DNA of 64,000 nucleotides, taken from NCBI RefSeq assembly GCF_055900595.2, contig NZ_CM148325.1. One strand, given 5' to 3'. Below the pieces are notes generated by a model. The model was given only the letters and a program-made list of their open reading frames with translations. It was not told the origin of the DNA and made no database searches. Made by a program: the position numbers and the translations under genes. Shown in pieces: positions 4,567 through 63,792 of the stretch (positions are counted from its first letter, which is position 1; each line of letters begins with the position of its first letter).

Positions 4567-6392
4567 TGAAATTGCAAAAGCAATTACTGGAAGCTGTGGA
4601 GCACAAACAGCTACGCCCGCTGGATGTGCAATTTGCCCTGACCGTGGCGGGAGATGAACATCCTGCCGTCACCCTCGCGGCAGCCCTGTTAAGCCACGAC
4701 GCCGGGGAAGGGCATGTCTGTTTACCGCTCTCACGACTGGAAAATAACGAGGAGTCACATCCGCTGTTAGCAACCTGCGTCAGCGAAATCGGTGAGTTAC
4801 AAAATTGGGAAGAATGCTTGCTGGCTTCACAAGCGGTCAGCCGGGGAGATGAACCAACGCCGATGATCCTCTGTGGTGATCGTCTTTATTTGAATCGCAT
4901 GTGGTGTAACGAGCGCACAGTGGCACGCTTTTTCAACGAAGTGAATCATGCCATTGAGGTTGATGAAGCTCTACTGGCGCAAACCCTGGACAAACTTTTT
5001 CCAGTAAGCGATGAAATTAACTGGCAAAAAGTGGCGGCGGCAGTGGCGCTGACGCGGCGGATCTCGGTGATTTCCGGCGGCCCTGGCACCGGTAAAACGA
5101 CCACCGTAGCGAAGTTGCTGGCAGCGTTAATTCAAATGGCAGACGGCGAACGCTGCCGTATCCGTCTGGCTGCACCAACGGGTAAAGCTGCCGCGCGCTT
5201 AACCGAATCTCTCGGCAAGGCTTTGCGCCAGTTACCGCTGACCGATGAACAAAAGAAACGCATTCCGGAAGATGCCAGCACTTTGCACCGATTGCTGGGT
5301 GCGCAGCCGGGTAGCCAGCGTTTACGTCATCATGCCGGTAACCCGCTGCATCTTGATGTGCTGGTGGTAGATGAAGCGTCAATGATCGATCTGCCTATGA
5401 TGTCGAGACTGATCGACGCCTTGCCCGATCATGCGCGAGTGATCTTTCTCGGCGATCGTGATCAACTGGCCTCGGTTGAGGCTGGGGCTGTGCTGGGCGA
5501 TATCTGCGCTTATGCCAATGCGGGCTTTACCGCAGAGCGTGCCGGGCAGCTAAGCCGCCTGACGGGAAGCCACGTCCCGGCGGGAAGCGGTACGGAAGCG
5601 GCATCTTTGCGCGACAGTCTCTGCCTGCTGCAAAAAAGCTATCGTTTCGGCAGCGATTCTGGCATTGGTCAGTTAGCTGCGGCGATCAACCGTGGTGATA
5701 AAACGGCAGTGAAAACCGTTTTTCAGCAGGATTTTACTGATATCGAAAAACGGCTTTTACAGAGCGGCGAAGACTATATTGCGATGCTTGAGGAGGCTCT
5801 TGCGGGTTACGGGCGTTATCTGGATCTGCTTCAGGCACGTGCCGAGCCGGATTTAATCATTCAGGCGTTCAATGAGTACCAGCTTTTGTGCGCCCTGCGG
5901 GAAGGGCCGTTTGGCGTGGCTGGACTGAATGAGCGAATTGAGCAGTTTATGCAACAGAAGCGCAAAATTCATCGTCATCCGCACTCTCGTTGGTACGAAG
6001 GCCGACCAGTGATGATTGCCCGTAATGACAGCGCGCTTGGGTTGTTTAATGGCGATATCGGTATTGCGCTGGATCGCGGGCAGGGGACGCGCGTCTGGTT
6101 TGCGATGCCGGATGGCAATATTAAGTCTGTGCAACCGAGCCGCCTGCCAGAACACGAAACCACGTGGGCGATGACGGTACATAAATCGCAGGGATCGGAG
6201 TTTGACCATGCGGCGTTGATTTTACCGAGCCAACGCACGCCAGTTGTAACGCGAGAGCTGGTTTACACTGCGGTGACCCGCGCGCGTCGCCGTCTGTCGT
6301 TGTATGCCGATGAGCGCATATTAAGTGCGGCAATCGCCACTCGTACTGAGCGGCGCAGTGGTCTGGCGGCGTTGTTTAGTTCGCGGGAATAA
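4566..6392 (+). CDS. recD: RecBCD exonuclease V subunit alpha (helicase)
   Basis: 608 aa, GGPGTGKTT Walker A; ATG overlaps recB stop by 1 nt (TAATG). Confidence 0.95.
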
Positions 6393-6402
6393 ACGTGATT
6401 GC

Positions 6403-6660
<258 letters not shown>

Positions 6661-8191
6661 TTACGCTGGTAGTTGTACAACTGCTTTTTGCTCTCGGGCA
6701 GTAAATCAATATCCACCGGGGTAAATCCACGTTCCTGGAACCAGTGAATACTGCGCGTGGTCAGTACAAACAATTTGCTTAATCCGCTTTGCTTCGCCTG
6801 AGCGGCAATGCGCTCCAGCAAAACCTCGCCCCTTGATGAGCTGCGGTAATCCGGGTGAACGGCCACACAGGCCATTTCCCCAATCTTCTCTTCCGGGAAC
6901 GGATAGAGTGCTGCGCAGGCAATAGTCGTGTTATCGCGCTGAATAATAGTGAATTTGTCGATTTCCATCTCCAGTTGCTCGCGAGAACGGCGTACCAGAA
7001 TACCTTGCTGCTCCAGTGGGCGAATCAACTCCAGAATGCCGCCAATATCGTTGATTGTTGCGCGACGAATTTGCTCGGCGCTTTCCATCACAATCTGCGT
7101 ACCGATACCGTCACGTGAGAACAACTCTTGCAACAGCGCGCCATCTTCCTGGTAACTAATTAAATGACAGCGACGTACGCCGCTGCGGCAGGCTTTCACC
7201 GCACCACGCAAAAAGCGCACCGTACCGGAGTTGTAATCGCCTTTCTCTTCCTGAGCTTCTACCCGCGCTTGTGCTTCGTTAGGGAAAAGCTCGGAGACAA
7301 TATCGCCGTCGTCATTAGTGACGCCCTGTGAAGAGCAAAAACCAATCATCTTTTCAGCTTTCAGTTTGATGGCCAGTTGAGTGGCGATCTCTTCCGAGGT
7401 CAGATTAAAGCTCTCGCCAGTGACTGAAACCGCGACCGGCCCCAGCAGCACTATCGCACCGCTGTCCAGTTGACGATGAATCGCATCTTCGTCAATCCGC
7501 CGGATACGCCCGCTATGGCAGTAATCCACACCGTCATCCACGCCCAGCGGCTGGGCAATAATAAAATTGCCACTGACGACGTTGATATGCGCGCCCTGCA
7601 GCGGCGTGTTATTGAGACTCATCGACAGGCGAGCAGTAATGTCCAGTTGCAATGTTCCCGCAGCCTGCTTCACCAGTTCTAGTGTTTTGGCGTCGGTCAC
7701 GCGTATATTTTTGTGATATAGCGGTTCGTGGTGATGCGCTGCCAGATTCGCATCGATCTGCGGGCGCGCTCCATAGACCACGACCAGACGGATGCCGAGG
7801 CTGTGCAGCAACCCGATATCATTAACGATACTGGAGAAATTCTCATGCTCAATGGCTTCACCGCCGAGCATGATGACAAACGTTTTTCCCCGGTGGGTAT
7901 TGATATAAGGAACCGAATGGCGGAATCCCTCGACCAACTCGGTTTTACGTTCCTTCACCACGGCACACCTCTTTGCATGATTATTCGTAATTATTGTATT
8001 TTTATTCTGTTTTTTCACTGGGTGCAAGTGCAAATTTTACGCATGAGCAACTTTTTTATCAGTAATGCCGTGAATATAAAAAGAATGTTTACCGTTTATT
8101 AGATGACAGATTATGCGTCTTTCGCTAAAGTTTCCGGTCAAATTAGTCGTTTATTTGTTACACAGCTTAGATTTTTTTGCTCGGGAGATGC

Positions 8192-9445
8192 ATGTCGGGA
8201 TCCAACACAGCAATCAGCCGTCGTCGTTTACTGCAAGGCGCGGGTGCCATGTGGCTATTGAGCGTAAGTCAGGTCAGTCTGGCTGCGGTCAGCCAGGTCG
8301 TGGCGGTGCGCGTCTGGCCTGCGTCCAGCTACACCCGTGTGACGGTAGAATCTAATCGTCAGCTGAAATATAAGCAGTTCGCGTTGAGTAACCCTGAACG
8401 CGTGGTGGTGGATATCGAAGATGTAAACCTGAACTCAGTGCTCAAGGGGATGGCGGCACAAATTCGTGCTGATGACCCGTTCATCAAGTCGGCGCGCGTC
8501 GGGCAGTTTGACCCGCAAACCGTGCGGATGGTTTTTGAGTTAAAGCAAAACGTAAAACCGCAGCTGTTTGCCCTTGCTCCGGTCGCCGGGTTTAAAGAGC
8601 GTCTGGTGATGGATCTCTATCCTGCCAATGCTCAGGACATGCAGGACCCGCTGCTGGCGCTGCTGGAGGATTACAATAAAGGCGATCTCGAAAAGCAGGT
8701 GCCGCCTGCGCAGAGTGGCCCGCAGCCAGGCAAAGCAGGGCGCGATCGTCCGATTGTCATTATGCTTGACCCTGGCCATGGCGGCGAAGACTCCGGTGCG
8801 GTGGGGAAATACAAAACGCGTGAAAAAGATGTGGTATTGCAAATTGCCCGCCGTTTGCGCTCTCTGATTGAGAAAGAGGGCAATATGAAAGTTTACATGA
8901 CCCGTAATGAAGACATCTTCATTCCGTTGCAAGTGCGCGTAGCAAAAGCACAGAAACAGCGTGCTGACTTGTTTGTCTCTATTCATGCCGATGCCTTTAC
9001 CAGTCGCCAGCCGAGCGGTTCCTCTGTGTTTGCGCTCTCTACCAAAGGTGCAACCAGTACCGCGGCAAAATATCTGGCGCAAACTCAGAACGCCTCGGAC
9101 TTGATTGGTGGCGTGAGTAAGAGCGGCGACCGTTATGTCGACCATACTATGTTCGATATGGTGCAGTCGCTGACCATTGCCGACAGTCTGAAGTTTGGTA
9201 AAGCTGTGTTGAATAAGCTCGGTAAAATCAACAAGCTGCATAAAAATCAGGTTGAACAAGCCGGGTTTGCCGTGCTGAAAGCGCCTGATATACCCTCCAT
9301 TTTGGTCGAAACGGCGTTTATCAGTAACGTTGAGGAAGAACGTAAACTGAAAACGGCAACCTTCCAGCAGGAAGTTGCGGAATCAATCCTCGCAGGGATA
9401 AAAGCGTATTTTGCCGATGGGGCGACGCTGGCGAGAAGGGGATAA
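8192..9445 (+). CDS. amiC: N-acetylmuramoyl-L-alanine amidase AmiC (Tat-exported)
   Basis: [19 protein letters not shown] twin-arginine signal; amidase_3 domain; ORF track start trimmed to MSGS. Confidence 0.9.
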
Positions 9446-9615
9446 TGTTTTTATTTATTCAATGAATTTATATTTCGTTGAATAGATAATATTTACCTGA
9501 ATATTAGACGTTGGTTTTGTGACTGATGTCGAATATTTGAATGTCGGCTTGAAAAATAAGCCGACCATCTCTTTAATTAAGCACAATTCCGTGTAATGTA
9601 TATGCATTAGTTAAT

Positions 9616-9698
9616 CATCTTGTAACTGTTAAATCAGGCAAGGCAATGTTTGAAGTAATTATTACTTCTGACGTGCCTTGCCTTTTTTTTTGGAGCTA
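9616..9698 (+). promoter_or_regulatory. RAT-like antiterminator target overlapping a rho-independent terminator in the leader of the BglG-family gene
   Basis: ttgtaactgttaaatcaggcaaggca resembles RAT elements (bgl/sac type); stem ggcaaggca (9637-9645) pairs with tgccttgcc (9674-9682), followed by a T run of nine; inner palindrome gaagtaat/attacttc. Confidence 0.6.
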
Positions 9699-9702
9699 TG
9701 GA

Positions 9703-10527
9703 ATGATCATCGAAAAAGTCATGAACAATAATTGTGTACAGGCATCGATGAATGGACAGGAGGTTATCATTTCTGGGCCTGGCGTCGGTTACAACAAAAA
9801 ATATGGAATGTCGGTCCCTGAGCATCCGGCTAACCGGATTTTTTATGTCAGAAATGAACAAAAAAATAAACTCTACAAATTGATTGAACATGTGGATATT
9901 GAGTATGTTTTTGTTGCCGAAAAAATAGTGCAATATGCGGAGAACAATCTCGAAAAAAATCTCAATCCATCGCTACTATTGATTCTTGCTGATCATATTT
10001 CGAATGCAATATCCCGAGTCGCTTCAGGCATACAAATTAATAATGTTTTCCTTGATGAAATCAAAGCGTTGTACAAAGCAGAGTATGCGATAAGTCGCGA
10101 TGCATTAACTATCATTAATGAGCAATTCAGCGTTCAACTTCCTGATGATGAGATTGGTTTTATAGCATTGCATATTTTAAATAATTATGAAAATTCAGTT
10201 GATTATGAATCAGTACGGATTATTGAGTTGTCGCAAATAATCACGGGGCTTATTGAAGTTGTTTATAACAGAAAGGTGGACAGAAGTTCATTTAATTATT
10301 CCAGGTTCATGATACACCTTAAATATTTTTCAAGTCGCGTATTATGCAATGAAAAAATAAAACAGAAAGATATTGGTGATCTCTATGAACAGTTTCTTGA
10401 GAAAGACATTCTGTTACAGCGCGCAATTCATGAAATTGAAAGGTATTTGTACGCCACTTTTAAATATGAATTGATTTTGGAAGAAAAACTATATCTCTCT
10501 ATTCGCACCAAAGTATTAATGGACTGA
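9703..10527 (+). CDS. BglG/LicT-family transcriptional antiterminator (CAT RNA-binding domain plus two PRD domains)
   Basis: N-terminus MIIEKVMNNNCVQASMNGQEVIISGPGVGYNKKYG typical of the CAT domain; about 275 aa; start chosen downstream of the terminator, so ORF track start 9646 is rejected; AT-rich. Confidence 0.75.
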   Translation: MIIEKVMNNNCVQASMNGQEVIISGPGVGYNKKYGMSVPEHPANRIFYVRNEQKNKLYKLIEHVDIEYVFVAEKIVQYAENNLEKNLNPSLLLILADHISNAISRVASGIQINNVFLDEIKALYKAEYAISRDALTIINEQFSVQLPDDEIGFIALHILNNYENSVDYESVRIIELSQIITGLIEVVYNRKVDRSSFNYSRFMIHLKYFSSRVLCNEKIKQKDIGDLYEQFLEKDILLQRAIHEIERYLYATFKYELILEEKLYLSIRTKVLMD

Positions 10528-10558
10528 TTATATATAACATTTATATGAGATAACCCGC

Positions 10559-12139
10559 ATGAAACAAAAGAAAGCCTGGAGTTTTTTTCAGAGCCTGGGA
10601 AAGGCATTTATGTATCCCATCGCTCTGCTAAGTGTATGTGGCATGATGTTAGGGCTAGGAAGTGGTTTAGCCAGCGATGATATGGCAAAATTAATTCCAC
10701 TACTGGCTATTCCCGTAATTAAAACCATTCTTGATTTTATTGTTAGCCTTGGTTTGTTTGCCTTTGTCAATTTACCTGTATTGTTTGCGATAGCTATACC
10801 TCTGGGGTTATTAAAAGAGAAAGAGGATAAAGCCTATGGCGCTTTTTCTGGCTTAATTGGTTTCATGGCGATGCATCTGGGAACGAACTTTTATCTTAAA
10901 CAACATGACTTATTGGTCGCTGCTGATCAAATGTCGACACATGGGCAAACCATTATTCTGGGAATCCAGTCCTACAATACCAGTGTGTTGGGTGGGATTA
11001 TAGCAGGATTATTAGTCGCCAGTATGTATAAAAAGATCGTTAACTTACGTATTCCTGAATCATTAGGATTTTATAGTGGCCCACGCCTGGTGCCTATTAT
11101 TACACTGATTGTGATGAGCGGATTTGGTCTGATCATCCCTTTTATCTGGCCGCCATTTTTCAATCTTTTCATGCTCATTGGCCACTGGATTTCAACTTCC
11201 GGTCCTGTTGGCTATTTTTTCTATGCAGTCGCCGAACGCGTGACGATACCTTTTGGTTTAAATCACCTGGTGACGTCAGTTTTCCGCTTTACCCCCATCG
11301 GCGGATCGGCAGTGATCGGCGGAGAAGAGTATTATGGCACCCTGAACATGTTTATGGCGTACGTCAAAGAGAATGCGGTCATTCCGCTGGATTTGGCGGG
11401 GAAAATGGAACAGGGCAAACTGATGATTCAGTATGGTCTGGCTGGTGCCGCGCTGGCGATGTATCGCACTGCTCATGCTCAAAACAGAAAAGCTATCAAA
11501 GCATTGCTTATTTCCGGGGTGCTTACAGTCATTATTGGCGGCGTCAGCGAACCGATTGAGTTTCTGTTCTTATTTGTCAGTCCACTGCTATTTGTCTTCC
11601 ATGCTTTTATGAATGGATTCGCCAACATGGTCTTGCCATATATGGGCGTGAAGATGGGATTTACTGGCGATCTGATTCAATTTATTAGCTTTGGCGTATT
11701 GCGTGGCACAAGAACAGGTTGGCCAATAGCGGTGTGTGTCGAAGTGGCCTATTTCTTTATTTATTACTTTGTGTTCCGTTGGACTATTCTCAAATTTAAC
11801 CTGATGACGGTAGGCCGTGAAGAGTCCAGTCCTGTCACGCTGAACGCTCATGAGGATACGGCTATAGCGGATATCCCACCGCTTGATAAATCAGAGCTGC
11901 AAGCAGCGGAGCAGATGGTTAAGGCACTTGGTGGTAAAGAGAATATTAAATCCCTGGATAATTGCGTAACTCGTTTACGTTTAACAATCGCAGATATGGG
12001 ATTGATTGACGAGGCAGCAATAAAAAGAGCTGGCGGAATTGCGGTTGTTAAACTTGATCAAAATACCCTACAAGTCATTATCGGTACTAAAGTCATCGCC
12101 TTGCGTCGGGATATGGATAACTACATGGGGATATGCTGA
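10559..12139 (+). CDS. PTS glucose-family EIICB component (C-terminal EIIB with CxTRLR phosphocysteine motif)
   Basis: Polytopic membrane protein with GVSEPIEF motif and C-terminal NIKSLDNCVTRLRLT; 526 aa; no EIIA domain. Confidence 0.8.
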   Translation: MKQKKAWSFFQSLGKAFMYPIALLSVCGMMLGLGSGLASDDMAKLIPLLAIPVIKTILDFIVSLGLFAFVNLPVLFAIAIPLGLLKEKEDKAYGAFSGLIGFMAMHLGTNFYLKQHDLLVAADQMSTHGQTIILGIQSYNTSVLGGIIAGLLVASMYKKIVNLRIPESLGFYSGPRLVPIITLIVMSGFGLIIPFIWPPFFNLFMLIGHWISTSGPVGYFFYAVAERVTIPFGLNHLVTSVFRFTPIGGSAVIGGEEYYGTLNMFMAYVKENAVIPLDLAGKMEQGKLMIQYGLAGAALAMYRTAHAQNRKAIKALLISGVLTVIIGGVSEPIEFLFLFVSPLLFVFHAFMNGFANMVLPYMGVKMGFTGDLIQFISFGVLRGTRTGWPIAVCVEVAYFFIYYFVFRWTILKFNLMTVGREESSPVTLNAHEDTAIADIPPLDKSELQAAEQMVKALGGKENIKSLDNCVTRLRLTIADMGLIDEAAIKRAGGIAVVKLDQNTLQVIIGTKVIALRRDMDNYMGIC

Positions 12140-13314
12140 TGGATGTTTTTAATACTCCTATTTCCCGCAAAGGAACATATTGTACCCAATGGGACTTTTG
12201 CGAGGACAGATTTGGTGTAAAAGATGTATTACCATTCTCTATTTCAGATATGGATCTTCCGATACCGGAAGCTATCATCAGGGCATTAAAAAAACGTCTG
12301 GAACACCCGATTTTAGGGTACAGCCGTTGGCAGCATGATGACTATCTGAATGCGATAGTCAATTGGTATCATCAACAATATAAAACTGAAATCAAACCAG
12401 AATGGATCACCTATAGCCCAAGCGTGATGTACTCCATTGCTAAAGCAATAGAGTTATTGACATCGCATGGTGATAATATTCTCGTTTTTACACCTGTCTA
12501 TAATGCATTTTTTGATATAATTAAACATAGTGAGAGAAATATTCTGACAGCCTCTTTGATTATAAAAAATGAGGGGGGCTACGCTATCAATTGGCAAGAT
12601 TTTGATCTTAAGATTCAAAGCGCAAAGATGGTGTTATTATGTAATCCTCATAACCCGACAGGAACCGTCTGGTCGGAAGAAGATCTGCATAAAATCGCTG
12701 CAAGCTGTGCAAGACATAATGTCTGGTTATGTTCAGATGAAATTCACAGTGATTTTGTTTTTAATCGTAGCTTTACATCTGCGCTTAAAATAAAAAAAGA
12801 AAAAGTAGTGGTGTTTAATTCGATATCGAAGACATTTAATGTTCCCGCGCTAACAGGATCGTATATGATTTCAACTGACGATAATTTTAATCATAAGTTC
12901 AGAACGATATCAAGATATCGCGATTTTGTAAACTCCCCATCCGTACTGAATATAATTGCAACTATTATTGCCTATAACGAATGTGAGGGATGGTTAAAGT
13001 CATTAAAGGCACATATTGCCTCTAACATTCAATTCACCCAGCAGTATCTGAACGAAAATACTCCAGAATTGATCGTAAGGCCAGCTGATGGTTGCTATTT
13101 TTCGTGGATAGATTGCTCTGCTATTGGTTATCCATTTGATGAATTCTACAGTCGATTAATTCATGAAGGCAAAGTGGGCATTATGGCGGGGAATGTCTAT
13201 GGAACGGAGGGGGAGGGCTACCTTCGTCTGAACCTGGCCTGCGGTCGAGAAAAATTATATATGGGGCTTACGCGTCTTGCGAGTGTAATTAAAAATATTA
13301 ATCAAGGAAAATAA
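12133..13314 (+). CDS. PLP-dependent aminotransferase class I/II, MalY/PatB-like C-S lyase
   Basis: 393 aa; SISKTF lysine motif; length and organisation after a PTS EIICB resemble malX-malY; overlaps the PTS gene by 7 nt. Confidence 0.7.
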   Translation: MLMDVFNTPISRKGTYCTQWDFCEDRFGVKDVLPFSISDMDLPIPEAIIRALKKRLEHPILGYSRWQHDDYLNAIVNWYHQQYKTEIKPEWITYSPSVMYSIAKAIELLTSHGDNILVFTPVYNAFFDIIKHSERNILTASLIIKNEGGYAINWQDFDLKIQSAKMVLLCNPHNPTGTVWSEEDLHKIAASCARHNVWLCSDEIHSDFVFNRSFTSALKIKKEKVVVFNSISKTFNVPALTGSYMISTDDNFNHKFRTISRYRDFVNSPSVLNIIATIIAYNECEGWLKSLKAHIASNIQFTQQYLNENTPELIVRPADGCYFSWIDCSAIGYPFDEFYSRLIHEGKVGIMAGNVYGTEGEGYLRLNLACGREKLYMGLTRLASVIKNINQGK

Positions 13315-13316
13315 AA

Positions 13317-13913
13317 ATGAACAGCACGGATCTTATCCATCTCATTAAACATTTTATGCGTAACGAACATAAAGCAGTTGAAGAAGTTATTGATTCCCCC
13401 CTTTCGGAGGTTGCAAATTTAATTAAAGTATTACAGTCTTGTCAGGGGAAAGTTGTTTTTATTGGTGTCGGTAAGTCCGGTATTATTGCCCGAAAACTCG
13501 CCGCAACATTTGCCAGCACTGGAACTCCCTCGTTTTTTGTTCACGGTACTGAAGCCGTACACGGCGATCTTGGGATGGTGGCGAAAGATGATGTTGTTAT
13601 TCTTATTTCAAACAGTGGTGAGACGACAGAAATCCTGGCAACACTACCTAGTCTGAAAAAAATGGGTAATTATTTGATCTCCTTTACCCGCAGTCATCGC
13701 TCATCGCTTGCGATAAGTTGTGATTTATCCGTTGAAATTCCCGTAAAAAGTGAGGCGGATAATTTAGGTTTAGCGCCGTCATGCTCATCAACAGTCGTTC
13801 TGGTTGTTGGTGATGCGGTGGCGCTTGCGCTCTCCGAATTGAAAAAGTTTACTCGTGCTGATTTCGGCTTATATCATCCAGGAGGTGCGCTCGGTATTAA
13901 AGCAAACTCATAA
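13317..13913 (+). CDS. SIS-domain sugar-phosphate isomerase, KdsD/GutQ-like (arabinose-5-phosphate isomerase fold) lacking the CBS pair
   Basis: GVGKSGIIARKLAATFASTGTPSFFVHGTEAVHGDLGMV...ISNSGET...GLAPSCSSTVVLVVGDAVALAL closely parallels the KdsD SIS domain; only 198 aa. Confidence 0.7.
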   Translation: MNSTDLIHLIKHFMRNEHKAVEEVIDSPLSEVANLIKVLQSCQGKVVFIGVGKSGIIARKLAATFASTGTPSFFVHGTEAVHGDLGMVAKDDVVILISNSGETTEILATLPSLKKMGNYLISFTRSHRSSLAISCDLSVEIPVKSEADNLGLAPSCSSTVVLVVGDAVALALSELKKFTRADFGLYHPGGALGIKANS

Positions 13914-13974
13914 TTTTAGAATATAAAACAGTAACCGGTCACGCCATCTTTTGGGGTGGCGTTCATTGATGTGA

Positions 13975-14931
13975 GTGTCAGCTATGAAAAACGTTCTGGT
14001 CACCGTTCCCAGCTTTTCAGCGCGTTGTGTTTCTGCCAGCAAGCTGCTAAGAGAAAATCATTTTAACCTTATTATCAAGAATAATGTGGAGCATCTGGTT
14101 AAATCAGAATCCACAGTATTACGAGAATCTATTTGCGCAGTCATTGCCGGAAAAGATTGTTATCAAGCGGATACGTTATCGCGACTACCAGGAGTGAAAA
14201 TAATATCGAGATTCGGGACAGGGATTGATAATATTGATCTTCATACGGCTCGACAATCAGGTATTGTGGTCAATAATGCTGTTGGGATTAATTCAAATGC
14301 AGTCGCGGAATTTATCATTGGTCTTATTTTTGCGAGCATGAGAAATATCCCCGGTAGCTATCATGCGATGCAAAATGGTTATTGGGGCGAGTCGCATGGC
14401 TGCGAGTTACAAGGTAAACGTATTGGCCTGCTTGGCTACGGCAATATTGGCAAAACACTGGCGAAAAGGTTATCTGGTTTTGATGTTGAGCTTTTAGCTT
14501 TTGACAAACAACCCGATTTCCAGGCCGCAGGCAAAGATGGAGTTCAGTTCGTATCAATTGAAGATATCTTTATGCAGTCTCATGTCATCATCGTTCTTTT
14601 GCCATTTTCTCCTGAGCTGGAGAACTTCATTAGTCATAAATATTTGTCGATGATGCGCAATGGTGCTCTTATCATCAACGCCGCAAGGGGAAAGTTGCTG
14701 GATGAGGGGGCTTTACTTCAGGTAATTGAAGAACGAAATGTTTTTGCAGCACTGGATGTGTTTAGCTCTGAACCGCTAGCGCAATTTAGCCCATTGCTAC
14801 ATGCCAGGAATATCATTACAACGCCGCATATTGCGGCCGCCACCGTTGAGTCATACCAGCAAACCGGGATATACGTTGCCAGGTCGATAATAGATTTCTT
14901 TGCAGGAAGGGAGATAAAAAACGTGCTGTGA
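13975..14931 (+). CDS. D-isomer-specific 2-hydroxyacid dehydrogenase (NAD-binding)
   Basis: GLLGYGNIGKTLAKRL Rossmann motif; ...ITTPHIAAAT catalytic His region; 318 aa. Confidence 0.75.
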   Translation: MSAMKNVLVTVPSFSARCVSASKLLRENHFNLIIKNNVEHLVKSESTVLRESICAVIAGKDCYQADTLSRLPGVKIISRFGTGIDNIDLHTARQSGIVVNNAVGINSNAVAEFIIGLIFASMRNIPGSYHAMQNGYWGESHGCELQGKRIGLLGYGNIGKTLAKRLSGFDVELLAFDKQPDFQAAGKDGVQFVSIEDIFMQSHVIIVLLPFSPELENFISHKYLSMMRNGALIINAARGKLLDEGALLQVIEERNVFAALDVFSSEPLAQFSPLLHARNIITTPHIAAATVESYQQTGIYVARSIIDFFAGREIKNVL

Positions 14932-14956
14932 GTTCAGCTAAGGAAGATTTCAGGTA

Positions 14957-14991
14957 CAAAAAAACCGCAATCTGTGAAACACATTGCGGTT
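14957..14991 (-). terminator. Rho-independent terminator of the tRNA-fMet operon (possibly bidirectional)
   Basis: aaaaaaaccgcaatctgtgaaacacattgcggttt: stem accgcaat/attgcggt with T run on the minus strand immediately 3' of the last tRNA. Confidence 0.55.
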
Positions 14992-15009
14992 TATCAGCAT
15001 CATAAGTGT

Positions 15010-15086
<77 letters not shown>

Positions 15087-15119
15087 TCACCGTACTGCTT
15101 TACTTCATCAAATTTTGAT

Positions 15120-15196
<77 letters not shown>

Positions 15197-15229
15197 TCAC
15201 CGTACTGCTTTACTTCATCAAATTTTAAT

Positions 15230-15306
<77 letters not shown>

Positions 15307-15514
15307 TCCGTGGATGCGCACTATACTCCGCTCGCGTTTTCATGCAACCTTTTTTTTACCCAGATCACGGATTTGGTATGATTTTGAGCAAAAACAAATC
15401 ACTAAAGCCTGTTTTTTGTGCAAAATTTGCGTCAGGGAGAGGCTGCTCATTTCATTAAACGCGGCGGTTTGTTATCTTCATTGCGCCTTATTTTTTAAAC
15501 TGAAGAAGAGAACA

Positions 15515-16612
15515 ATGAAAGGACGTTGGGTAAAGTACCTTCTTATGGGCACGGTTGTGGCAATGCTTGCCGCCTGCTCTTCCAAACCAACCGATCGCGG
15601 ACAGCAATATAAAGACGGGAAATTTACCCAGCCTTTCTCTCTGGTAAACCAGCCAGATGCCGTTGGCGCGCCAATTAACGCCGGTGATTTTGCCGAGCAA
15701 ATTAACCATATCCGTACTTCGTCACCGCGTCTGTATGGCAACCAGAGTAATGTTTATAATGCGGTGCAGGAGTGGCTACGCGCAGGCGGTGATACCCGCA
15801 ATATGCGTCAGTTCGGCATTGACGCCTGGCAGATGGAAGGTGCCGACAACTATGGCAACGTGCAGTTTACGGGCTATTACACGCCTGTCATTCAGGCGCG
15901 CCATACCCGTCAGGGCGAGTTCCAGTATCCTATTTACCGTATGCCGCCAAAACGTGGTCGTCTGCCGTCTCGTGCGGAGATCTACGCGGGAGCATTGAGC
16001 GATAAATACATCCTCGCTTACAGCAACTCTCTGATGGATAACTTCATTATGGATGTGCAGGGTAGCGGGTATATCGATTTTGGTGATGGCAGTCCGCTTA
16101 ACTTCTTCAGCTATGCCGGAAAGAATGGTCATGCCTATCGCAGTATTGGTAAGGTGCTGATTGACCGTGGCGAAGTGAAAAAAGAAGATATGTCGATGCA
16201 GGCGATTCGTCACTGGGGTGAAACACACAGTGAAGCCGAGGTTCGCGAGCTGCTGGAACAGAACCCGTCTTTCGTCTTCTTTAAACCGCAATCTTTTGCT
16301 CCGGTGAAAGGGGCAAGTGCGGTGCCGCTGGTTGGTCGCGCTTCAGTTGCGTCCGATCGTTCCATTATCCCACCTGGTACAACCTTACTGGCAGAAGTGC
16401 CGCTGCTGGATAATAACGGCAAATTTAACGGTCAGTACGAACTACGGCTGATGGTGGCGCTGGATGTCGGTGGTGCAATCAAAGGCCAACACTTCGATAT
16501 TTATCAAGGTATCGGGCCGGAAGCCGGACACCGCGCAGGTTGGTACAACCACTATGGACGTGTTTGGGTGCTGAAAACCGCCCCGGGCGCAGGTAACGTC
16601 TTTAGCGGCTGA
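15515..16612 (+). CDS. mltA: Membrane-bound lytic murein transglycosylase A (lipoprotein)
   Basis: MKGRWVKYLLMGTVVAMLAACSS lipobox; start trimmed from ORF track (15233), whose N-terminal extension runs into the tRNA genes. Confidence 0.9.
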   Translation: MKGRWVKYLLMGTVVAMLAACSSKPTDRGQQYKDGKFTQPFSLVNQPDAVGAPINAGDFAEQINHIRTSSPRLYGNQSNVYNAVQEWLRAGGDTRNMRQFGIDAWQMEGADNYGNVQFTGYYTPVIQARHTRQGEFQYPIYRMPPKRGRLPSRAEIYAGALSDKYILAYSNSLMDNFIMDVQGSGYIDFGDGSPLNFFSYAGKNGHAYRSIGKVLIDRGEVKKEDMSMQAIRHWGETHSEAEVRELLEQNPSFVFFKPQSFAPVKGASAVPLVGRASVASDRSIIPPGTTLLAEVPLLDNNGKFNGQYELRLMVALDVGGAIKGQHFDIYQGIGPEAGHRAGWYNHYGRVWVLKTAPGAGNVFSG

Positions 16613-16688
16613 TGTGTTATTCTGTATACCGTTTTGACGGATACGACAGGGTGAGGGATAACCTCGCCCTTTTTAATTCTGAGGTGCT

Positions 16689-17495
16689 ATGTCTGTGGTA
16701 ATTAGTGATGCATGGCGTCAGCGTTTTGGTGGCACTGCGCGTCTGTATGGTGAAAAAGCGTTGCAACTGTTTGCTGATGCGCATATTTGTGTGGTCGGTA
16801 TCGGTGGCGTTGGTTCCTGGGCGGCGGAAGCGTTGGCGCGCACGGGTATTGGCGCAATCACACTTATCGATATGGATGATGTGTGCGTCACTAATACCAA
16901 TCGGCAAATTCACGCGCTGCGCGATAACGTCGGGCTGGCTAAAGCGGAAGTCATGGCCGAACGTATTCGCCAGATTAACCCAGAGTGCCGTGTAACGGTG
17001 GTGGATGACTTCGTAACGGTGGATAACGTAGCACAATATATGAGTGCCGGTTATTCGTACGTGATTGATGCCATTGATAGTGTGCGACCCAAGGCGGCGC
17101 TGATTGCTTATTGTCGTCGCAATAAAATCCCTCTGGTCACGACTGGTGGTGCTGGTGGGCAGATTGATCCGACGCAGATTCAGGTTACCGATCTGGCTAA
17201 AACGATTCAGGACCCGCTGGCGGCGAAGTTGCGCGAGCGCCTGAAAAGCGATTTTGGTGTAGTGAAAAACAGCAAAGGTAAGCTCGGCGTGGATTGCGTG
17301 TTCTCTACCGAAGCGCTGGTGTACCCGCAGTCAGACGGTACGGTGTGCGCGATGAAAGCCACGGCAGAAGGGCCGAAGCGGATGGATTGTGCATCTGGAT
17401 TTGGCGCGGCGACGATGGTGACCGCCACCTTTGGTTTTGTTGCGGTTTCTCATGCGTTGAAGAAGATGATGGCGAAAGCTGCGCGTCAGGGGTAA
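16689..17495 (+). CDS. tcdA: tRNA threonylcarbamoyladenosine dehydratase (E1-like, ThiF/MoeB fold)
   Basis: 268 aa; GIGGVGSW nucleotide-binding motif. Confidence 0.9.
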   Translation: MSVVISDAWRQRFGGTARLYGEKALQLFADAHICVVGIGGVGSWAAEALARTGIGAITLIDMDDVCVTNTNRQIHALRDNVGLAKAEVMAERIRQINPECRVTVVDDFVTVDNVAQYMSAGYSYVIDAIDSVRPKAALIAYCRRNKIPLVTTGGAGGQIDPTQIQVTDLAKTIQDPLAAKLRERLKSDFGVVKNSKGKLGVDCVFSTEALVYPQSDGTVCAMKATAEGPKRMDCASGFGAATMVTATFGFVAVSHALKKMMAKAARQG

Positions 17496-17504
17496 ACAAT
17501 CAGG

Positions 17505-17538
17505 TCGGATGCGACGTGAACGTCTTATCCGACCTGGT
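17505..17538. repeat. REP element between convergent tcdA and csdE
   Basis: aggtcggatgcgacgtgaacgtcttatccgacct palindrome. Confidence 0.5.
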
Positions 17539-17545
17539 TTTGCGC

Positions 17546-17989
17546 TTAACCCTGCTTCGCCGCCGCGATAATCGCCTCACTTAACGCATTCAACCCCTGG
17601 CTGCGTGAGGCGCTAAGCTGCGCACGCAATCCCAGCTCATCAAACAATGCCAGCGGCGACTGAGCCTGCAATTCGGCGGCGGTTTTCCCCTCAACGGCAG
17701 TCAACAACACTGCCAGCAGGCCGCGCACAATGCGTCCTTCGCTGTCGCCAAAGAAATGCATCGTGCCGTTTTCAGCCACGGTATACCCCAGCCAGACGCG
17801 GTTTTCGCATCCGGCAATCTCTTTAGCCTGCGCTTTTAACTCGTCTGGCAAAGCAGGAAGCTGTTTCCCCAACATAATCAGCTGGCGATATTTGTCTTCC
17901 CATTGCGTCAGTGGCGCGAAAGTATCGCGTAACGTCTCTATGGTAACGGTTGTGCCGAACGGATGTCCGGCGAATTGCGGGTTTGTCAT
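17546..17989 (-). CDS. csdE: Sulfur acceptor protein CsdE (SufE-like)
   Basis: 147 aa; start overlaps csdA stop by 1 nt. Confidence 0.9.
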
Positions 17990-19194
17990 TAATCCACCAA
18001 TAATTCCAGCGCGCGGTCAACGGCATTCACCAGCGCATCCACATCACTCTTTGTATTATATGGCGCAAAAGAGGCGCGCAGTGTGCCGGTTACGCCTAAT
18101 TCTGCCAATAGCGGCTGAGCGCAATGCTGCCCGGCCCGCAGGGCAATGCCGTACTCCGCCAGCAGCGTCACCATATCGCTTTGATGAACGCCAGCAAAAT
18201 CAAAGGCTAGCAGGCTGGAATCCTGGCTGCGGAATGAACGAAAGCCTGGACGTTTCGTCAGCGCATCTTCCGCCAGCGTTGCTAAGCTACGGCTCCAGCT
18301 TTCGGCCTGGTTGATATCGTAATCTGCCAGCCATTCCAGCGCCGCGCTTAATCCTATGACACCAGCGACATTTGGCGTTCCTGCTTCCAGTTTCCACGGC
18401 GCAGATTGAGTGATGAAGCCGTCAAAACTCACTTCGTGAACCATTTTGCCGCCGCCCAGCCAGGGCGACATTGCTTCCAGCAGTTCTGGTTTGCCGTAAA
18501 GTACGCCTATCCCTGTCGGGCCATACAGTTTGTGACCAGAGAAAGCGTAAAAATCAATATCCAGTTGCTGAACATCTGCGGGGAAATGCACCGCCCCCTG
18601 AGCACCATCAACCATCACCACCATCCCGGCTGAATGAGCAAAGGTAATCGCTCGTGCCAGATCCGGGCAACCGCCAGTGACGTTAGACATCTGGCCCAAC
18701 GCCAGAATCCGACTATGGGGAGTAATCAGTTCAGGCAACAAATCGATATCTGGCAACCGCTGCGCATTAAGCGGCAATTTCACCACTTTGGCTCCGGTTT
18801 GTTGGGCGACCATCAGCCAGGGGACGAGGTTGGCGTGATGCTCTGCCACACTGACAATAATTTCATCGCCCGGTTGCAGACGCGGACGGGCATAGCATTG
18901 CGCCACCATGTTGATGGATTCAGTGGTGCCGCGCGTCCAGACGATAGTTTTGTCATCTGGTGCATTCAGTAATAGCGCCACTTTTTCCCGTGCAGCTTCG
19001 TAACGCGCGGTCAGGCGTTGGGCCTCGGCAAACTGGCTACGATGGACGTTTCCGGCGCTCAGGCTGTAAAACTGTCGGGTTGCTTCAACCACGGCTTCAG
19101 GTTTAAGCGCGGTCGCGGCACTGTCGAGATAGACGCCCGCATCCTGTAGCGCGGGAAACTGGGCGCGAAATTGCGCGGGATTAAAAACGTTCAT
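17989..19194 (-). CDS. csdA: Cysteine sulfinate desulfinase / cysteine desulfurase CsdA
   Basis: [35 protein letters not shown]; PLP class V; start trimmed from ORF track (19230) to MNVF. Confidence 0.9.
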
Positions 19195-23220: not shown

Positions 23221-23643
23221 TTACGGTGTTACCCCTTTTTTTAAAAGAATATTCCCGTACTTCGCTCGTTCGCCTGTGATAACGATCGCAAAGGCTTTTT
23301 GCGCCCGCTCATAAAACGCAAAACGATTGATGCGGATGATGTCAGGACAGGGGGCTTGTAGTGAAAGCGCATTACGATAACGTCGTTCTACTTCAGGATC
23401 GAGAGTGTCACCTTCTACCGCCGCCATCATCACCAGCGGCGGTGCATAACTGTCCAGTTCAAATAACGGGATAATCGCCTGGAGTAAGTCGCTCACCAAC
23501 AGGCCATCAGCACGGATCACCTGCGGTCCCATCGAATGGGCGGGAAAGTGAGCATCGGAAAAAATAATTTCATCTCCATGTCCCATCTCTGCCAGCACTT
23601 TCAATAGTTCGGGAGAAATTAACGGCGAAATTGTTTTCAGCAT
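23221..23643 (-). CDS. fucU: L-fucose mutarotase
   Basis: 140 aa RbsD/FucU family. Confidence 0.9.
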
Positions 23644-23644
23644 T

Positions 23645-25093
23645 TCACACTTCCTCTATAAATTCAGGTTCAGTTTGTGGGTAGAAATAACGGTACTGAT
23701 AATGAATCTGCGCGCGAGCTTCTTCCGGGCTGTTAAATTCCCCTACGCCATACCAACCGAACAGCGCAGCTCCTGCGACGGTCGTTTCGGCGTCGTCGAG
23801 AACTTTTACCGGAATATCAAGCATATTGGCTTTAATCTGATTCCACAATGTGTTGCGACTTCCTCCACCTACTAACAATAATTCAGAGGCTTTAAAGTGC
23901 CCGATTTTTTCCAGCATCTGTAGATTGCGCTGTAATTGCGCGGTTAACCCTTCCAGCGCCGCGCGATAGAAATGTCCGCGCGTGGTATTGAGCGTCACTC
24001 CTTGCCAGCCAGCGTTCTGACACGACAATAAATCACACTGCATTTTCACGCCATCCGCGCCAGGCGCGATCAGACGAGCCTCTTCAATCAACATTTGCCA
24101 GGGCGTTTCAGCAGTCCAGAACAGTTTTCTCACCCATTCCAGCACGCCGGATGCCAGCCATTGCATACCTGGGTTATACAACCCTGCCTGACTATCCAGT
24201 TCGCAGGTCGAACCGGCGTACTGACTTAACAGCGAAGTATCAACCTGGGCGCTACGGACCATTAAAATTTCCCATGTACCGGAAGAGAGCACGGGTTCAT
24301 TTTGTTCGGCACCAGCGCCAAAAAGGGCGAACTGGGTATCGTGACCTGCGGAAATCACCGGTATGCCAACGGGTAAGCCGAGCATTGCTGCGGCGCTGTT
24401 CTGTAACGTACCAATCTGTTCACCCGCTTCCCCCAGACGAGGGAAGAGTCGGCGCGGAATACCGGTGGCTTGTAAAATTTGCGGACTGAAATCGCGTTGC
24501 TGGATATCCAGCATCTGGCTGGTTCCGGCCATCGTGATATCAGTAGTGAATTCGCCGGTTAAACGGTGGTTAATCAGCGACGAAATAAAGAGCCAGGCGT
24601 GCGCGCGTTCCAGCAGTTGTGGATGATTTTCTTTCAACCACACCAATTTATATAACGTATTGAAACTAAAGGCTCCGACGCCAGAAATAGCCTGCAACTG
24701 CTGTGCGGAGATCAACCGTTCAATATTGTCCATTACCGCTGCTGTTCGCGGACATTTCCAGCTAATGATCGGATAGAGCAGATTGCCTTGCTTATCTACC
24801 AGAGCGCCATCCACACCAAAGGTGGTGACGGCGATACCGCGGATGTGGCATTCAGTCAGTTCACTATTGATTTGCCGACAGCAATCAGCAAAGCGTTGCA
24901 AAATGGCGTCTAAAGACCACTGGTGCCAGGTGTTGTTTTCCATCGCGATATCGCTGGCATTAGGCGTTGAGGCGCGGGCAACAATTTTTCCCTGCCGATT
25001 AACCGCGATGGCCCTGACATTGGTCGCGCCACAGTCGAGTACCAGGATAACTTCTTGTTTCATAATCGCTCCTGCAATATAGCCGGATAACAT
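23645..25093 (-). CDS. fucK: L-fuculokinase
   Basis: 482 aa FGGY kinase. Confidence 0.9.
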
Positions 25094-25171
25094 TGCTTAT
25101 CCGGCTAACCACTCTTGCTTGTTCAGGCCCGGAAGCCGGGGCGACCGGGCATCACATCAGGGAGTAATGTA

Positions 25172-26947
25172 TTAACGCTTGTACAACGGGCCGTAGTTCT
25201 GGCAAGCGCGGTAATCCTGGCCTTCAATATCCATGCCGTGCGCGGCCCAGGCAGAAGGACGATACACTTTGGTCTCTTCAACGTTATGCATACATACCGG
25301 GATACGCAGCATGGAGGCGAGAGTGATAAAGTCAGCGCCAACGTGGCCGATGGTCAGAACCCCGTGGTTAGCGCCCCAGTTCGCCATTACCGAGTACACA
25401 TCCGTAAACGGCCCTTTACCGGTGAGGCGCGGTGCAAACCAGGTGGTTGGCCAGGTTGAGTTGGTGCGTTTGTTGAGGATGTCATGCACATCCTTCGGTA
25501 ACTCAACGCTCCAGCCTTCCGCGATTTGCAGTACCGGTCCCAGGCCTTTGATGATGTTGACACGGGTCATGGTGAACGGGACACCGCCTTCAGTAAGGAA
25601 GCGGGAAGAGTAACCACCGCCACGGAAATATTCGTGGATAGCCGGGCACCATTCGGTCGCGGCGAGGCAAGCGTCAGCCTCTTGCTGAGAGATTTCCCAG
25701 TGCGGCTTCATCGTCGGTTTACCTTCGCTGTCGCGTTGTTTACAGGATCCGTCCAGCGCAGCAGAACCGGAGTTGATCAAGTGGATGATGCCGTGTTCTG
25801 CCAGTCCGTCCAGTTTATGCCCCGTTACTCGCTCAATTGCTTCTGGTGACCAGTAGGTACGCACATCGGCAAATACCTGAGCGGTGCCGGTGAGTTGGTG
25901 ACCCATTAGCATTGCCACGCCGTTAAGACTGTCGTTTTCGGTCGCCACGACAAAGGGTTCGCGTACGCCATTCCAGTCAAATGAACTGTTGAGGATCGCT
26001 TCGGCGGTGTCGCCATTTGGATATTGATCGGTCCAGTGACGTTGCCCCTGGAAGCCCGCAGCGATGGCGTTGTAACCAAGAGATTCTTCCACGCGACCAA
26101 TATCGGCCAGTTTGCTGTTGCCTTGCATCATGTCGCGGATACACATCGTCATCAGTAAACTTTCGCGTAGAACTGCGCGGCTTTGCTCGGCATTGCGTTG
26201 ATACTGTTTGTTATTTTCATCTTCGCCATAGCGGAAGTTTTTATCAGCCCAGGCCAGCGCCATTTCCAGTTCTGCTTCGTCGTAAATCTTCTGATCAATA
26301 CGGCGACGCAGTTCGGTCATATCCACCGCCTGGACTTTCATTCCCAGCCAGGATTCAAAGAAGTTGTGGTCAACGATGGAACCGGCGATCCCCATCGAAA
26401 CGCCGCCCAGCGACAGATAGCTTTTACCTTTCATACTGGCGACTGCCAAACCGGCGCGGGCAAAGCGCAGCAGTTTTTCTTCAACGTCGGCAGGAATCGA
26501 TGTGTCATCGGCATCCTGAACGTCATGACCGTAAATGGAGAATGCCGGGATACCTTTCTGACTGTGAGCTGCCAGAGCTGCGGCGAGGTAAACAGCGCCT
26601 GGGCGTTCAGTGCCGTTAAAGCCCCAAATGGCTTTCGGGCGGGTAGGGTCCATGTCAATGGTTTCACTGCCATAGCACCAGCAAGGCGTTACCGTAATGG
26701 TGAGGCCTACATTCTGGCTGCTGAATTTTTCTTCGCAAGCAGCAGCTTCAGCCATACCCGCGATACAGGTATCGGAAATGACACACTCGACGGCAGCTCC
26801 GCAGGCATGGCGCAGTTTCTCGGTCAGCAGTGCGGCCGTAGCTTTCGCCATATTCATTGTTTGTTCTTCAAGCGACTCACGAACACCCATGCGACGACCG
26901 TCAATAACCGGGCGGATACCAATTTTCGGTAAGCTGATTTTTTTCAT
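25172..26947 (-). CDS. fucI: L-fucose isomerase
   Basis: 591 aa, [19 protein letters not shown]. Confidence 0.95.
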
Positions 26948-26979
26948 TACAGATTCCTCACTTTATTCGGAAAATATGT

Positions 26980-28296: not shown

Positions 28297-28842
28297 AGCA
28301 TCCTCTTAGGTTCAGAAGCTTAAGCACGTAATCGGTTATGTTTTCAAAAGTGCAAAACCAGCGAGTTCGGGCTTCATATCAGTGAATATTTGCCTGTCTG
28401 AAATGAACTCATGGATTCATTTTCAAATAAAAAACGCTCTGTAATATGACGACGGTCACACTTATTAGCTGGGAGGTGACTTTATGTGACTACCATCACT
28501 TTAATAATCGAAATTTCATGCCCGTTTCAGAAAATAAATCATAAAAAACACAAACCAGATGACCGTATTAATTGTTTATGCCGAAAACGGGCATTTCTGG
28601 CGAGGGGAAATGGAAAAATGACCGTTTTGATAAATATTTTTAAGAGCGGTCATTTTTAACGGGGTTATAAAAAGAGAACTTGCAGTTATTTACTGTGATT
28701 AGTTGAGCCAGGTCACAAAATATAAGCTTGTGAATTTCTTTCCGGTTAATCAGGAAGAAGATGGTGGGTAATTAAACGGCTAATTCAATAGTGTGAAAGG
28801 AACAACATTATTGCCCTGTTTTGAATCAGAGAGAGGTAGCTA
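28297..28842. promoter_or_regulatory. Divergent fucPIKUR / fucAO control region
   Basis: 546 bp AT-rich intergenic region between divergent operons; contains several copies of a TGACCG(T) core in both orientations (for example atgaccgta, gacggtca, atgaccgtt, gcggtcat). Confidence 0.5.
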
Positions 28843-38370: not shown

Positions 38371-38379
38371 GTGCACAGA

Positions 38380-57363: not shown

Positions 57364-57368
57364 AACGA

Positions 57369-58517: not shown

Positions 58518-58531
58518 TTCAATTCCTTTTG

Positions 58532-60056: not shown

Positions 60057-60137
60057 GGTTAAATCCCTTTTAATTAATTCCTTAAAACATAATACGCCAC
60101 TTCATTTTATTCTTTATGATCTAATCCACTTTTTGCC

Positions 60138-61466: not shown

Positions 61467-61566
61467 CTTTTTGCCTTAAACCTGCCTGTAACAGAATGTT
61501 AATAAGACATGATTGTTGTGGCAGGATCTGCAATAATTAACAATTATCCACTTCACAGAGAATGCT

Positions 61567-63746: not shown

Positions 63747-63792
63747 TTCAGGTATGTTCAGGCCGGGCAGTTTCCCGCCCGGCCTTCCTCAC

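Follow-up and report, generated by a model that had tools for sequence, protein, structure and literature searches.

What is the role of a five-gene cluster that unites an antiterminator, a sugar permease of the phosphotransferase system (PTS) and three metabolic enzymes between amiC and the metV tRNA gene of Escherichia coli, and how did it come to lie there? The question is posed by positions 9446–15009 of a 64,000-nucleotide stretch of contig NZ_CM148325.1 (RefSeq assembly GCF_055900595.2; the window), to which E. coli E200086 is a 100% match. Very probably, this interval is the ortholog of c3405–c3410, the amiC-proximal PTS module of the island PAI-CFT073-metV, and represents a substrate-inducible catabolic operon for a sugar derivative. 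The locus is therefore not new: its genes match a published set with the same gene order. What is added here concerns the leader with its ribonucleic antiterminator (RAT) and terminator, the dimorphism of the site, the layering of a type VI secretion system (T6SS) island upon it, the age of the module and the linkage of its lyase family to the PTS.

Both UTI89 and CFT073 carry the same five genes in the same order after amiC, followed by a T6SS cluster. In the CFT073 locus extract the genes are found at 23591–28820, where a single alignment covers window positions 6598–15023 at 93.9% identity; the modules are 90–97% identical in DNA, their RAT and terminator differ by one or two bases, and the proteins are 93–98% identical (268 of 274 residues for the antiterminator, 517 of 526 for the permease). 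They differ in that the window module lies directly against metV, without the T6SS cluster. The RefSeq record of CFT073 uses C_RS tags, and the mapping onto c34xx and paf names draws on literature statements and on sequence identity with a PDB entry. PAI-CFT073-metV has been defined as c3385–c3410, 25 coding sequences without integrase or transposase, within which Bryant et al. (2010) recognised c3405–c3410 as a ‘PTS system, maltose/glucose specific’ set, present in all four uropathogenic E. coli genomes, E2348/69 and SMS-3-5, and not in K-12 or O157:H7. A 2026 paper tabulates the same five open reading frames (ORFs) as ‘GR 19 tRNA-Met..amiC’, lists identities of 30% to BglG, 41% to MalX, 36% to MalY, 52% to KdsD and 32% to SerA, and proposes no substrate. 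In its title Mosberg et al. (2011) presents c3406 as an arabinose 5-phosphate isomerase; pafR and pafP are named genes of the metV island, and paf mutants are reported to be impaired in colonising mouse bladder and kidney (Baum et al. 2014).

Five intact ORFs, all on one strand, occupy the space from the amiC stop codon (9445) to position 15010, where the first tRNA-Met gene has its 3' end. The first two are 31 nt apart, the second and third overlap by 1 nt (TGATG), and the remaining gaps measure 2 nt and 70 nt; the RefSeq annotation of E200086 agrees. Matches in NCBIfam, Pfam and the PDB uphold the gene identities given in the initial annotation, and its one-operon layout holds as well. Its five ORFs likewise stood, with corrected starts: the RefSeq-consistent ones are used throughout (Table 1), including 12139 for the lyase and 13984 for the dehydrogenase, and a 293-aa version of the antiterminator beginning at 9646 was rejected as having a spurious 5' end, since that start lies within the leader terminator (the real start is the ATG at 9703). 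The AT-richness it had noted was also borne out, with a G+C content of 40.2% in the interval against 53.3% in the left and 49.9% in the right flank, exactly 20 G+C in the 60 nt of 9901–9960, and G+C at third codon positions of 0.34–0.45 in the island genes against 0.54–0.58 in amiC and mltA.

The first two genes encode what we take to be PafR and PafP, which are said to have been described as a Bgl-like sensory pair in which PafR can antiterminate; deletion of c3405–c3410 reportedly attenuates CFT073. The antiterminator belongs to the BglG/LicT family and comprises a CAT_RBD domain (PF03123, residues 1–55, E = 2.7e-14), PRD1 (E = 1.6e-23) and a PRD2 that Pfam detects weakly (E = 0.085), yet aligns to PRD2 of LicT. 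Among NCBIfam models LicT scores best (227.7 bits), followed by GlcT and BglG, all under their equivalog cutoffs, and alignment with the LicT structures 1TLV and 1H99 places histidines at the equivalents of positions 100, 159 and 207 and an arginine at that of 269. The permease is a glucose-family EIICB without an EIIA domain. It passes the EIIB_glc model TIGR00826 (61.9 bits, cutoff 45.75) and contains the motifs GVSEPIEF and, from residue 468, NCVTRLR, which holds the EIIB cysteine; its ortholog carries PF02378 and PF00367. Both curated MalX models score below cutoff (TIGR02004, 536.5 against 632.2; NF007509, 526 against 665), so that the protein is MalX-like rather than MalX.

Regulation is suggested by the leader ahead of the antiterminator gene, where a RAT-like element merges into an intrinsic terminator (Table 1). 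The element has a core in common with both RATs of the K-12 bgl operon (TTGTTAC...GCAGGCAAAACC; bgl RATs GGATTGTTACTGCATTCGCAGGCAAAACC and GGATTGTTACCGCACTAAGCGGGCAAAACC), and occurs once in the window, where chance alone would give none. Its own hairpin is weak, at −6.3 kcal/mol against −7.2 for the bgl RAT, and its 3' half doubles as the 5' arm of the terminator hairpin, which has a minimum free energy of −28.1 kcal/mol (z = −7.4) and is followed by GGAG and the ATG of the regulator. Across nine sequences the core is invariant save for a single base in Atlantibacter (GTAAC to GTCAC); the one stem pair that varies does so by a compensatory change (CTG/CAG to CTA/TAG). A 39-mer around the RAT is found as a single copy per genome in exactly the 1688 carriers of the island discussed below, identical in 1414 of them, so that the element is better conserved than the rest of the island, which is 90–95% identical in most carriers; likewise, the leader is 97.7% identical to that of UTI89, compared with 90–95% for the coding genes. 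The same layout precedes the regulator ortholog in E. whittamii, Atlantibacter hermannii, two Citrobacter species, two Enterobacter genomes and Enterococcus termitis. When folded one by one (gaps in the alignment displace the 3' arm of the terminator in Enterobacter and Enterococcus), the terminators of Atlantibacter, Citrobacter, Enterobacter and Enterococcus differ in stem sequence and all fold at −25.7 to −27.4 kcal/mol. Such an arrangement is typical of operons governed by their own PRD antiterminator, and the RAT-like element is the obvious candidate target for PafR.

Generic searches were less informative about the leader. A promoter and terminator scan returned counts no higher than in shuffles and missed the leader terminator, the hairpin of which is too large for the stem and loop limits of the scan, and an Rfam search of 9000–15500, permissive thresholds included, returned three tRNAs only and no curated family over the leader. 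The candidate promoter region rests on comparison: the E. termitis leader has a clear TTGAAA-17-TATGAT promoter just upstream, and in the enterobacterial leaders a conserved block alone is visible, without confidently assignable hexamers.

The third gene product, a pyridoxal phosphate (PLP)-dependent lyase of the MalY/PatB family, exceeds the cutoff of TIGR04350 (366.9 bits against 340) and has MalY (1D2F) as its best PDB match, aligned end to end at 289 bits. Compared with 1D2F it keeps SISKTFN (SxSKxFN, with the PLP lysine), NPHNPTG (NPxNPTG), SDEIH and LRLN, with the carboxylate-binding arginine; the motifs for binding an alpha-amino acid are intact, and beta C-S lyase activity is predicted from the family assignment. 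The fourth product matches the KdsD model with 197 bits over residues 30–195, the SIS part alone, falls below the full-length family cutoff of TIGR00393 (191.8 against 203.7), and shows the motifs GVGKSG, SNSGET and HPGG. As first annotated, it has no CBS domains; its homologs carry PF01380, some together with PF13580, and no CBS. It is identical in 192 of 198 residues to PDB 5UQI/5VHU, the sequence of which is that of the CFT073 protein (198 of 198). An activity interconverting arabinose 5-phosphate and ribulose 5-phosphate is supported by the title of Mosberg et al. (2011) and by the PDB entry of this 97%-identical protein. SIS-only homologs (52–60% identity) are frequent in Firmicutes beside sugar kinases and transporters, neighbours that favour a catabolic role for the isomerase. 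Its ortholog c3406 is reported to carry out the interconversion in vitro. The fifth product is a D-2-hydroxyacid dehydrogenase of the phosphoglycerate dehydrogenase type with 1WWK as best PDB match, the motif GYGNIG, an Asp in AFDKQ and the Arg, Glu and His of AARGK, SSEPL and TPHIA; it scores below the cutoffs of TIGR01327 (210 against 454) and NF008759 (150.5 against 404) and is not a SerA equivalog. The dehydrogenase is absent from the Enterobacter and E. termitis versions of the module, and in Atlantibacter hermannii (10673–11620 of the locus) it is split into two ORFs of 132 and 119 aa beside four intact genes. It is an accessory, optional member, the conserved core being antiterminator, EIICB, lyase and SIS isomerase.

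Table 1. Features of the amiC–metV interval and its borders (window coordinates).
Feature	Position	Strand	Basis or sequence
Candidate amiC terminator or boundary hairpin	9543..9565	+	GTCGGCTT-loop-AAGCCGAC, ~100 nt past amiC stop; terminator-like site in scan
Candidate promoter region	9566..9615	+	Conserved block GTGTAnnGTATAnnCAT; Escherichia, Atlantibacter and Citrobacter leaders
RAT-like antiterminator binding element (candidate)	9616..9645	+	CATCTTGTAACTGTTAAATCAGGCAAGGCA
Intrinsic leader terminator	9636..9691	+	21-bp hairpin 9636–9683, then T9
BglG/LicT-family antiterminator, 274 aa	9703..10527	+	Pfam, NCBIfam LicT, PDB 1TLV/1H99
PTS glucose-family EIICB permease, 526 aa	10559..12139	+	NCBIfam, motifs
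MalY/PatB-family PLP-dependent beta C-S lyase, 391 aa	12139..13314	+	TIGR04350, PDB 1D2F
Single-SIS sugar-phosphate isomerase, 198 aa, c3406 ortholog	13317..13913	+	PDB 5UQI/5VHU, KdsD model
NAD-dependent D-2-hydroxyacid dehydrogenase (phosphoglycerate dehydrogenase type), 315 aa	13984..14931	+	TIGR01327, PDB 1WWK
Terminator-like hairpin and U-run for the metZWV tRNA operon	14958..14989	-	Read from sequence; differs from K-12
metV, metW, metZ (three tRNA-fMet genes)	15010..15306	-	ARAGORN, Rfam, K-12 annotation

From these components we infer a phosphorelay logic, an EIIA partner, an order of enzymes and a class of substrate. Transcription would start in the ~50 nt ahead of 9616 and, with the inducer absent, halt at the leader terminator. 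The substrate, when present, would be imported and phosphorylated by the EIICB permease, for which the chromosomal EIIA-Glc (Crr) is the presumed partner because the permease has no EIIA domain. Phosphorylation of the substrate would take phosphoryl groups away from the histidines in PRD1 of the antiterminator, the CAT domain of which could then bind the RAT, the element that shares its 3' half with the terminator, and polymerase would read through into all five genes, the regulator being autoregulated as in bglG. The phosphorylated substrate may then be handled by the lyase, through beta-elimination on an amino-acid-like part, and by the SIS isomerase, through an aldose–ketose isomerisation feeding the pentose-phosphate pathway; the dehydrogenase would convert an intermediate or by-product that is a 2-oxo or 2-hydroxy acid.

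Several points weigh against such an inducible catabolic operon. A sigma-70 consensus scan of the leader yielded no promoter site, and the AT-rich leader could be silenced by H-NS; no in vitro condition is said to have induced the paf promoter, and the targets of PafR were reportedly unknown. As PRD2 is weak and the fourth conserved histidine of the antiterminator is replaced by arginine, regulation by HPr may differ from that of LicT. On the metabolic side the operon encodes no glycoside hydrolase, a lyase and a dehydrogenase have no evident role in a sugar pathway, and a glucose-family PTS would not obviously yield a pentose phosphate, the in vitro substrate of the isomerase. No substrate was found in the literature on the c34xx genes, on malX/malY function or on frv/ypd/sgc peptidase operons.

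The genomic company of the lyase offers some indication of the chemistry involved. A scan with a lyase alignment, restricted to one genome per species, returned 80 loci, and in all 80 a PTS component lies beside the lyase gene. A glucose-family EIICB gene adjoins it in 59, upstream and on the same strand in 57 (the malXY arrangement), and the pair is found in Fusobacterium, Brachyspira, Bacilli, Photobacterium, Vibrio, Gilliamella, Aeromonas and others; at the other loci the PTS components are of the fructose or lactose family and come with FrvR-like regulators. Fourteen of the 80 also encode M42 or YpdF-type (Xaa-Pro) aminopeptidases together with FrvR-like regulators, apparently linking the lyase family to frv/ypd-type ‘PTS plus peptidase’ operons. 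Since the PTS accompanies every one of these lyases, the subfamily is a PTS-linked enzyme and not merely a moonlighting MalT repressor.

A bolder proposal, which we consider rather unlikely, is that the EIICB–lyase core, joined here by the SIS isomerase and the dehydrogenase, constitutes a general catabolic route for glyco-amino-acid conjugates that has so far escaped notice. A sugar S- or O-linked to the beta-carbon of Cys, Ser or Thr, derived from degraded mucin, other glycoproteins or glucose-cysteine adducts, would be imported and phosphorylated by the PTS, and beta-elimination by the PLP enzyme would release a sugar phosphate together with pyruvate or 2-oxobutyrate and ammonia; the isomerase would then take the sugar phosphate and the dehydrogenase the 2-oxo acid. 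The PTS at all 80 loci, the aminopeptidases at 14, the intact amino-acid motifs and the lack of a glycosidase lend this circumstantial support. If true, it would provide K-12 MalX and MalY with a physiological substrate class. Whatever the inducer, its identity could inform the function of the widespread malXY-type permease–lyase pair, and the conserved RAT–terminator leader should make a leader–reporter fusion usable as an inducer biosensor.

That the gene set matches no named pathway, as the initial annotation had it, holds insofar as no substrate is known; the gene pairings, however, do have precedents. In K-12 malI–malXY a glucose-family EIICB gene likewise directly precedes a gene for a MalY-type PLP beta C-S lyase, the ligand of which is called unclear in the literature; that system differs in protein sequence (~41% and 36% identity), in having a LacI-type repressor and in lacking SIS isomerase and dehydrogenase. 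With bglGFB, licT and sacY the locus shares a CAT domain followed by PRDs, of which the second is weak in Pfam here, the RAT core, the overlap of RAT and terminator and a regulator placed behind its own RAT. Compared with bglGFB, it has one RAT and none between regulator and permease, a MalX-like permease and no phospho-glycosidase, and compared with LicT an arginine stands at the equivalent of His269. The isomerase has the same SIS catalytic domain as the products of gutQ, kdsD and kpsF, and gutQ is an arabinose-5-phosphate-isomerase-family gene inside the K-12 glucitol (srl/gut) PTS operon; the window protein differs in having no tandem CBS domains and 198 aa rather than ~320–330, and in its association with a different PTS family. 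For a PLP-dependent lyase that performs beta-elimination on a substrate phosphorylated during PTS uptake there is a precedent in Salmonella dgaABCDEF (D-glucosaminate), which differs in its mannose-family PTS, an unrelated PLP family and an encoded aldolase, absent from the window operon.

The distribution of the module is that of a dimorphism. In K-12 MG1655 metV (b2816) adjoins amiC (b2817) across a 73-bp spacer without the island, and among 5426 complete E. coli genomes the interval is carried by 1688 (31%; at least 80% of it in 1686), in line with the absence from K-12 and the accessory status initially proposed. An empty K-12-type junction is found in 3734 genomes, and since the two states together account for 5422 of the 5426, the site is in essence dimorphic. 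Among the carriers are ST131, UTI89, ABU 83972, CFT073, E2348/69, O111:H8 and other large Shiga toxin-producing E. coli genomes; the operon is present in about one third of E. coli, the main extraintestinal lineages among them. The allele of the window is rare, 94 of the 1688 carriers being at least 99% identical to it and 1544 falling in the 90–95% band. One of 1690 island matches lies on a plasmid record and not on a chromosome.

On one side the window and K-12 versions part at the stop codon of amiC, on the other at the final tRNA base. The metV 3' end forms the right boundary, 78 nt from the end of the module, and the K-12 spacer has two hairpins of its own and nothing recognisable in common with the interval edges. 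Within the interval no integrase ORF was found in the ORF list or by NCBIfam, and 9300–15009 holds no tRNA 3'-end repeat of at least 10 nt (best 16-mer match 11/16), as had been noted initially. Composition and tRNA adjacency would fit a classical tRNA-integrated island, a candidate that was rejected for want of an integrase and of a repeat at the amiC side. A trace of such an insertion is seen next to the module in other strains. In ~1000 carriers the right-junction match ends 14 nt into the tRNA, and the UTI89 junction (25555–25568 of the locus) consists of spacer, TGGTTGCGGGGGCC (the 14-nt tRNA-fMet 3' end) and then T6SS DNA. As this 14-mer is the usual scar of tRNA-targeted insertion, the T6SS island entered at metV when the PTS module was already in place; in B2 strains it lies between module and metV, and the window and ~680 genomes show the older, simpler state, with the module beside metV. 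The locus illustrates layered island growth, an old metabolic module and a later T6SS island sharing the same tRNA.

Outside E. coli proper, E. whittamii and Atlantibacter hermannii have the module at this amiC/metV/mltA locus as well, as does E69, a divergent genome labelled E. coli. In Citrobacter spp. (6559–11924 of the locus) the five genes lie against a tRNA-Asp by dnaQ/rnhA, which we take to be the aspV locus of the K-12 map, with a yafV-type amidohydrolase gene and fadE on the far side. No integrase was seen in the Citrobacter module and no tRNA 3'-end repeat at its far side; with such a repeat missing both there and at the amiC side in the window, the label of a classical integrative island is not applied to the module. 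Enterobacter and Enterococcus termitis have the first four genes alone, at unrelated loci. The E. termitis permease is 72% identical to that of E. coli, which together with the low G+C indicates an origin in, or exchange with, Firmicutes.

These observations bear on how recent the module may be. Could it be the remnant of a recently imported tRNA-targeted island, cryptic or decaying and without present function? Low G+C, the position beside tRNA-Met here and tRNA-Asp (dnaQ–rnhA) in Citrobacter, the broken dehydrogenase of Atlantibacter and the reported lack of in vitro expression could all be taken that way, but we hold it to be extremely improbable. Relative to UTI89 all five genes have a ratio of nonsynonymous to synonymous divergence (dN/dS) of 0.03–0.10, and are therefore under purifying selection. 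Synonymous divergence of the island is close to that of its flanks, at 0.15–0.43 against 0.16–0.37 for UTI89, 0.22–0.51 against 0.38–0.44 for E. whittamii and 0.31–0.57 against 0.31–0.58 for E69 (against Atlantibacter, island and flanks are saturated or nearly so). Moreover, the module is nearly always complete in carriers, its RAT and terminator are conserved, it is older than the T6SS insertion, and neither integrase nor repeat accompanies it. The horizontal acquisition proposed in the initial annotation is thus retained on the strength of the foreign composition, though as an event of the distant past: given the same locus in relatives, flank-like dS and precedence over the T6SS island, the module is old in Escherichia, and its acquisition ancient and not recent.

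Two further readings accept a functional operon and assign it another purpose. One holds that it chiefly makes arabinose 5-phosphate for 3-deoxy-D-manno-octulosonic acid (KDO), lipopolysaccharide (LPS) or capsule, with the PTS genes as a sensor; membership of the SIS protein in the KdsD/GutQ/KpsF family, its 97% identity to c3406 and the tie of the locus to uropathogen fitness speak for it. We rejected it as highly improbable on account of the four-gene core in Enterococcus termitis, a member of a Gram-positive genus not known to make KDO or LPS; in addition, SIS-only homologs in Firmicutes sit in sugar-catabolic contexts, the gene lies behind a predicted sugar-responsive terminator, and c3406, said to have isomerase activity, is reportedly dispensable singly, its deletion not being attenuated. 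The other reading takes the locus for a second malXY, in which a maltose/glucose permease and a MalY-like MalT repressor would form a regulatory module for the maltose regulon. This agrees with the best-matching families, MalX (536 bits) and MalY (289 bits to 1D2F), and with the literature label of a maltose/glucose-specific PTS; it is nevertheless very unlikely, and was rejected on cutoffs and context, as both MalX models remain under cutoff, identity to K-12 MalX and MalY is 41% and 36%, an antiterminator takes the place of the MalI repressor, two further enzymes belong to the operon, and conservation of the EIICB–lyase pair in Fusobacterium, Brachyspira, Photobacterium and Bacilli would favour an enzymatic role coupled to uptake. 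A catabolic operon for a sugar derivative, induced by its substrate, thus remains the preferred reading.

Around the interval the gene order is recB, recD, argA (minus strand), amiC, the interval, three tRNA-fMet genes (minus strand), mltA, tcdA, csdE and csdA. Against K-12, dS climbs towards the island on the left (recD 0.10, argA 0.19, amiC 0.31) and remains elevated on the right (mltA 0.20, tcdA 0.26, csdE 0.29, csdA 0.18). In amiC (8192–9445) 6–7% of bases differ from K-12 and UTI89 (dS 0.31–0.37) with dN = 0, and the AmiC protein accession is identical in E200086, UTI89 and CFT073; the window overall is ~3–4% diverged from both K-12 and B2 strains. An old presence/absence polymorphism nearby, or an imported segment, would be expected to leave such a pattern (4575–19194), and the site may serve as an example of a stable dimorphism with unusually high synonymous divergence in its flanks. 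Past the amiC stop, the boundary hairpin of Table 1 has a changed stem in E. whittamii with pairing kept (GCCAGA/TCTGGC; read by eye).

Three other segments of the window depart from K-12. At 38370–39080 there is an insertion of ~710 bp with an IS200/IS605-family transposase ORF (38514–38972; NF033573, 2e-42), the insertion point lying ~5 nt inside the csrB 3' end in K-12 coordinates. At 56551–61466, ~4.9 kb that cannot be aligned to K-12 stand in place of ~1 kb around yqcG–ygcG and encode three minus-strand ORFs (301, 382 and 310 aa) without an NCBIfam match, a LemA/MamQ-like protein (59454–60056) and an IS4-family transposase (60151–61359). Beyond it, on the queE/ygcE side, 61466–64000 is 87–89% identical to K-12, compared with 96–97.6% for the rest of the window.

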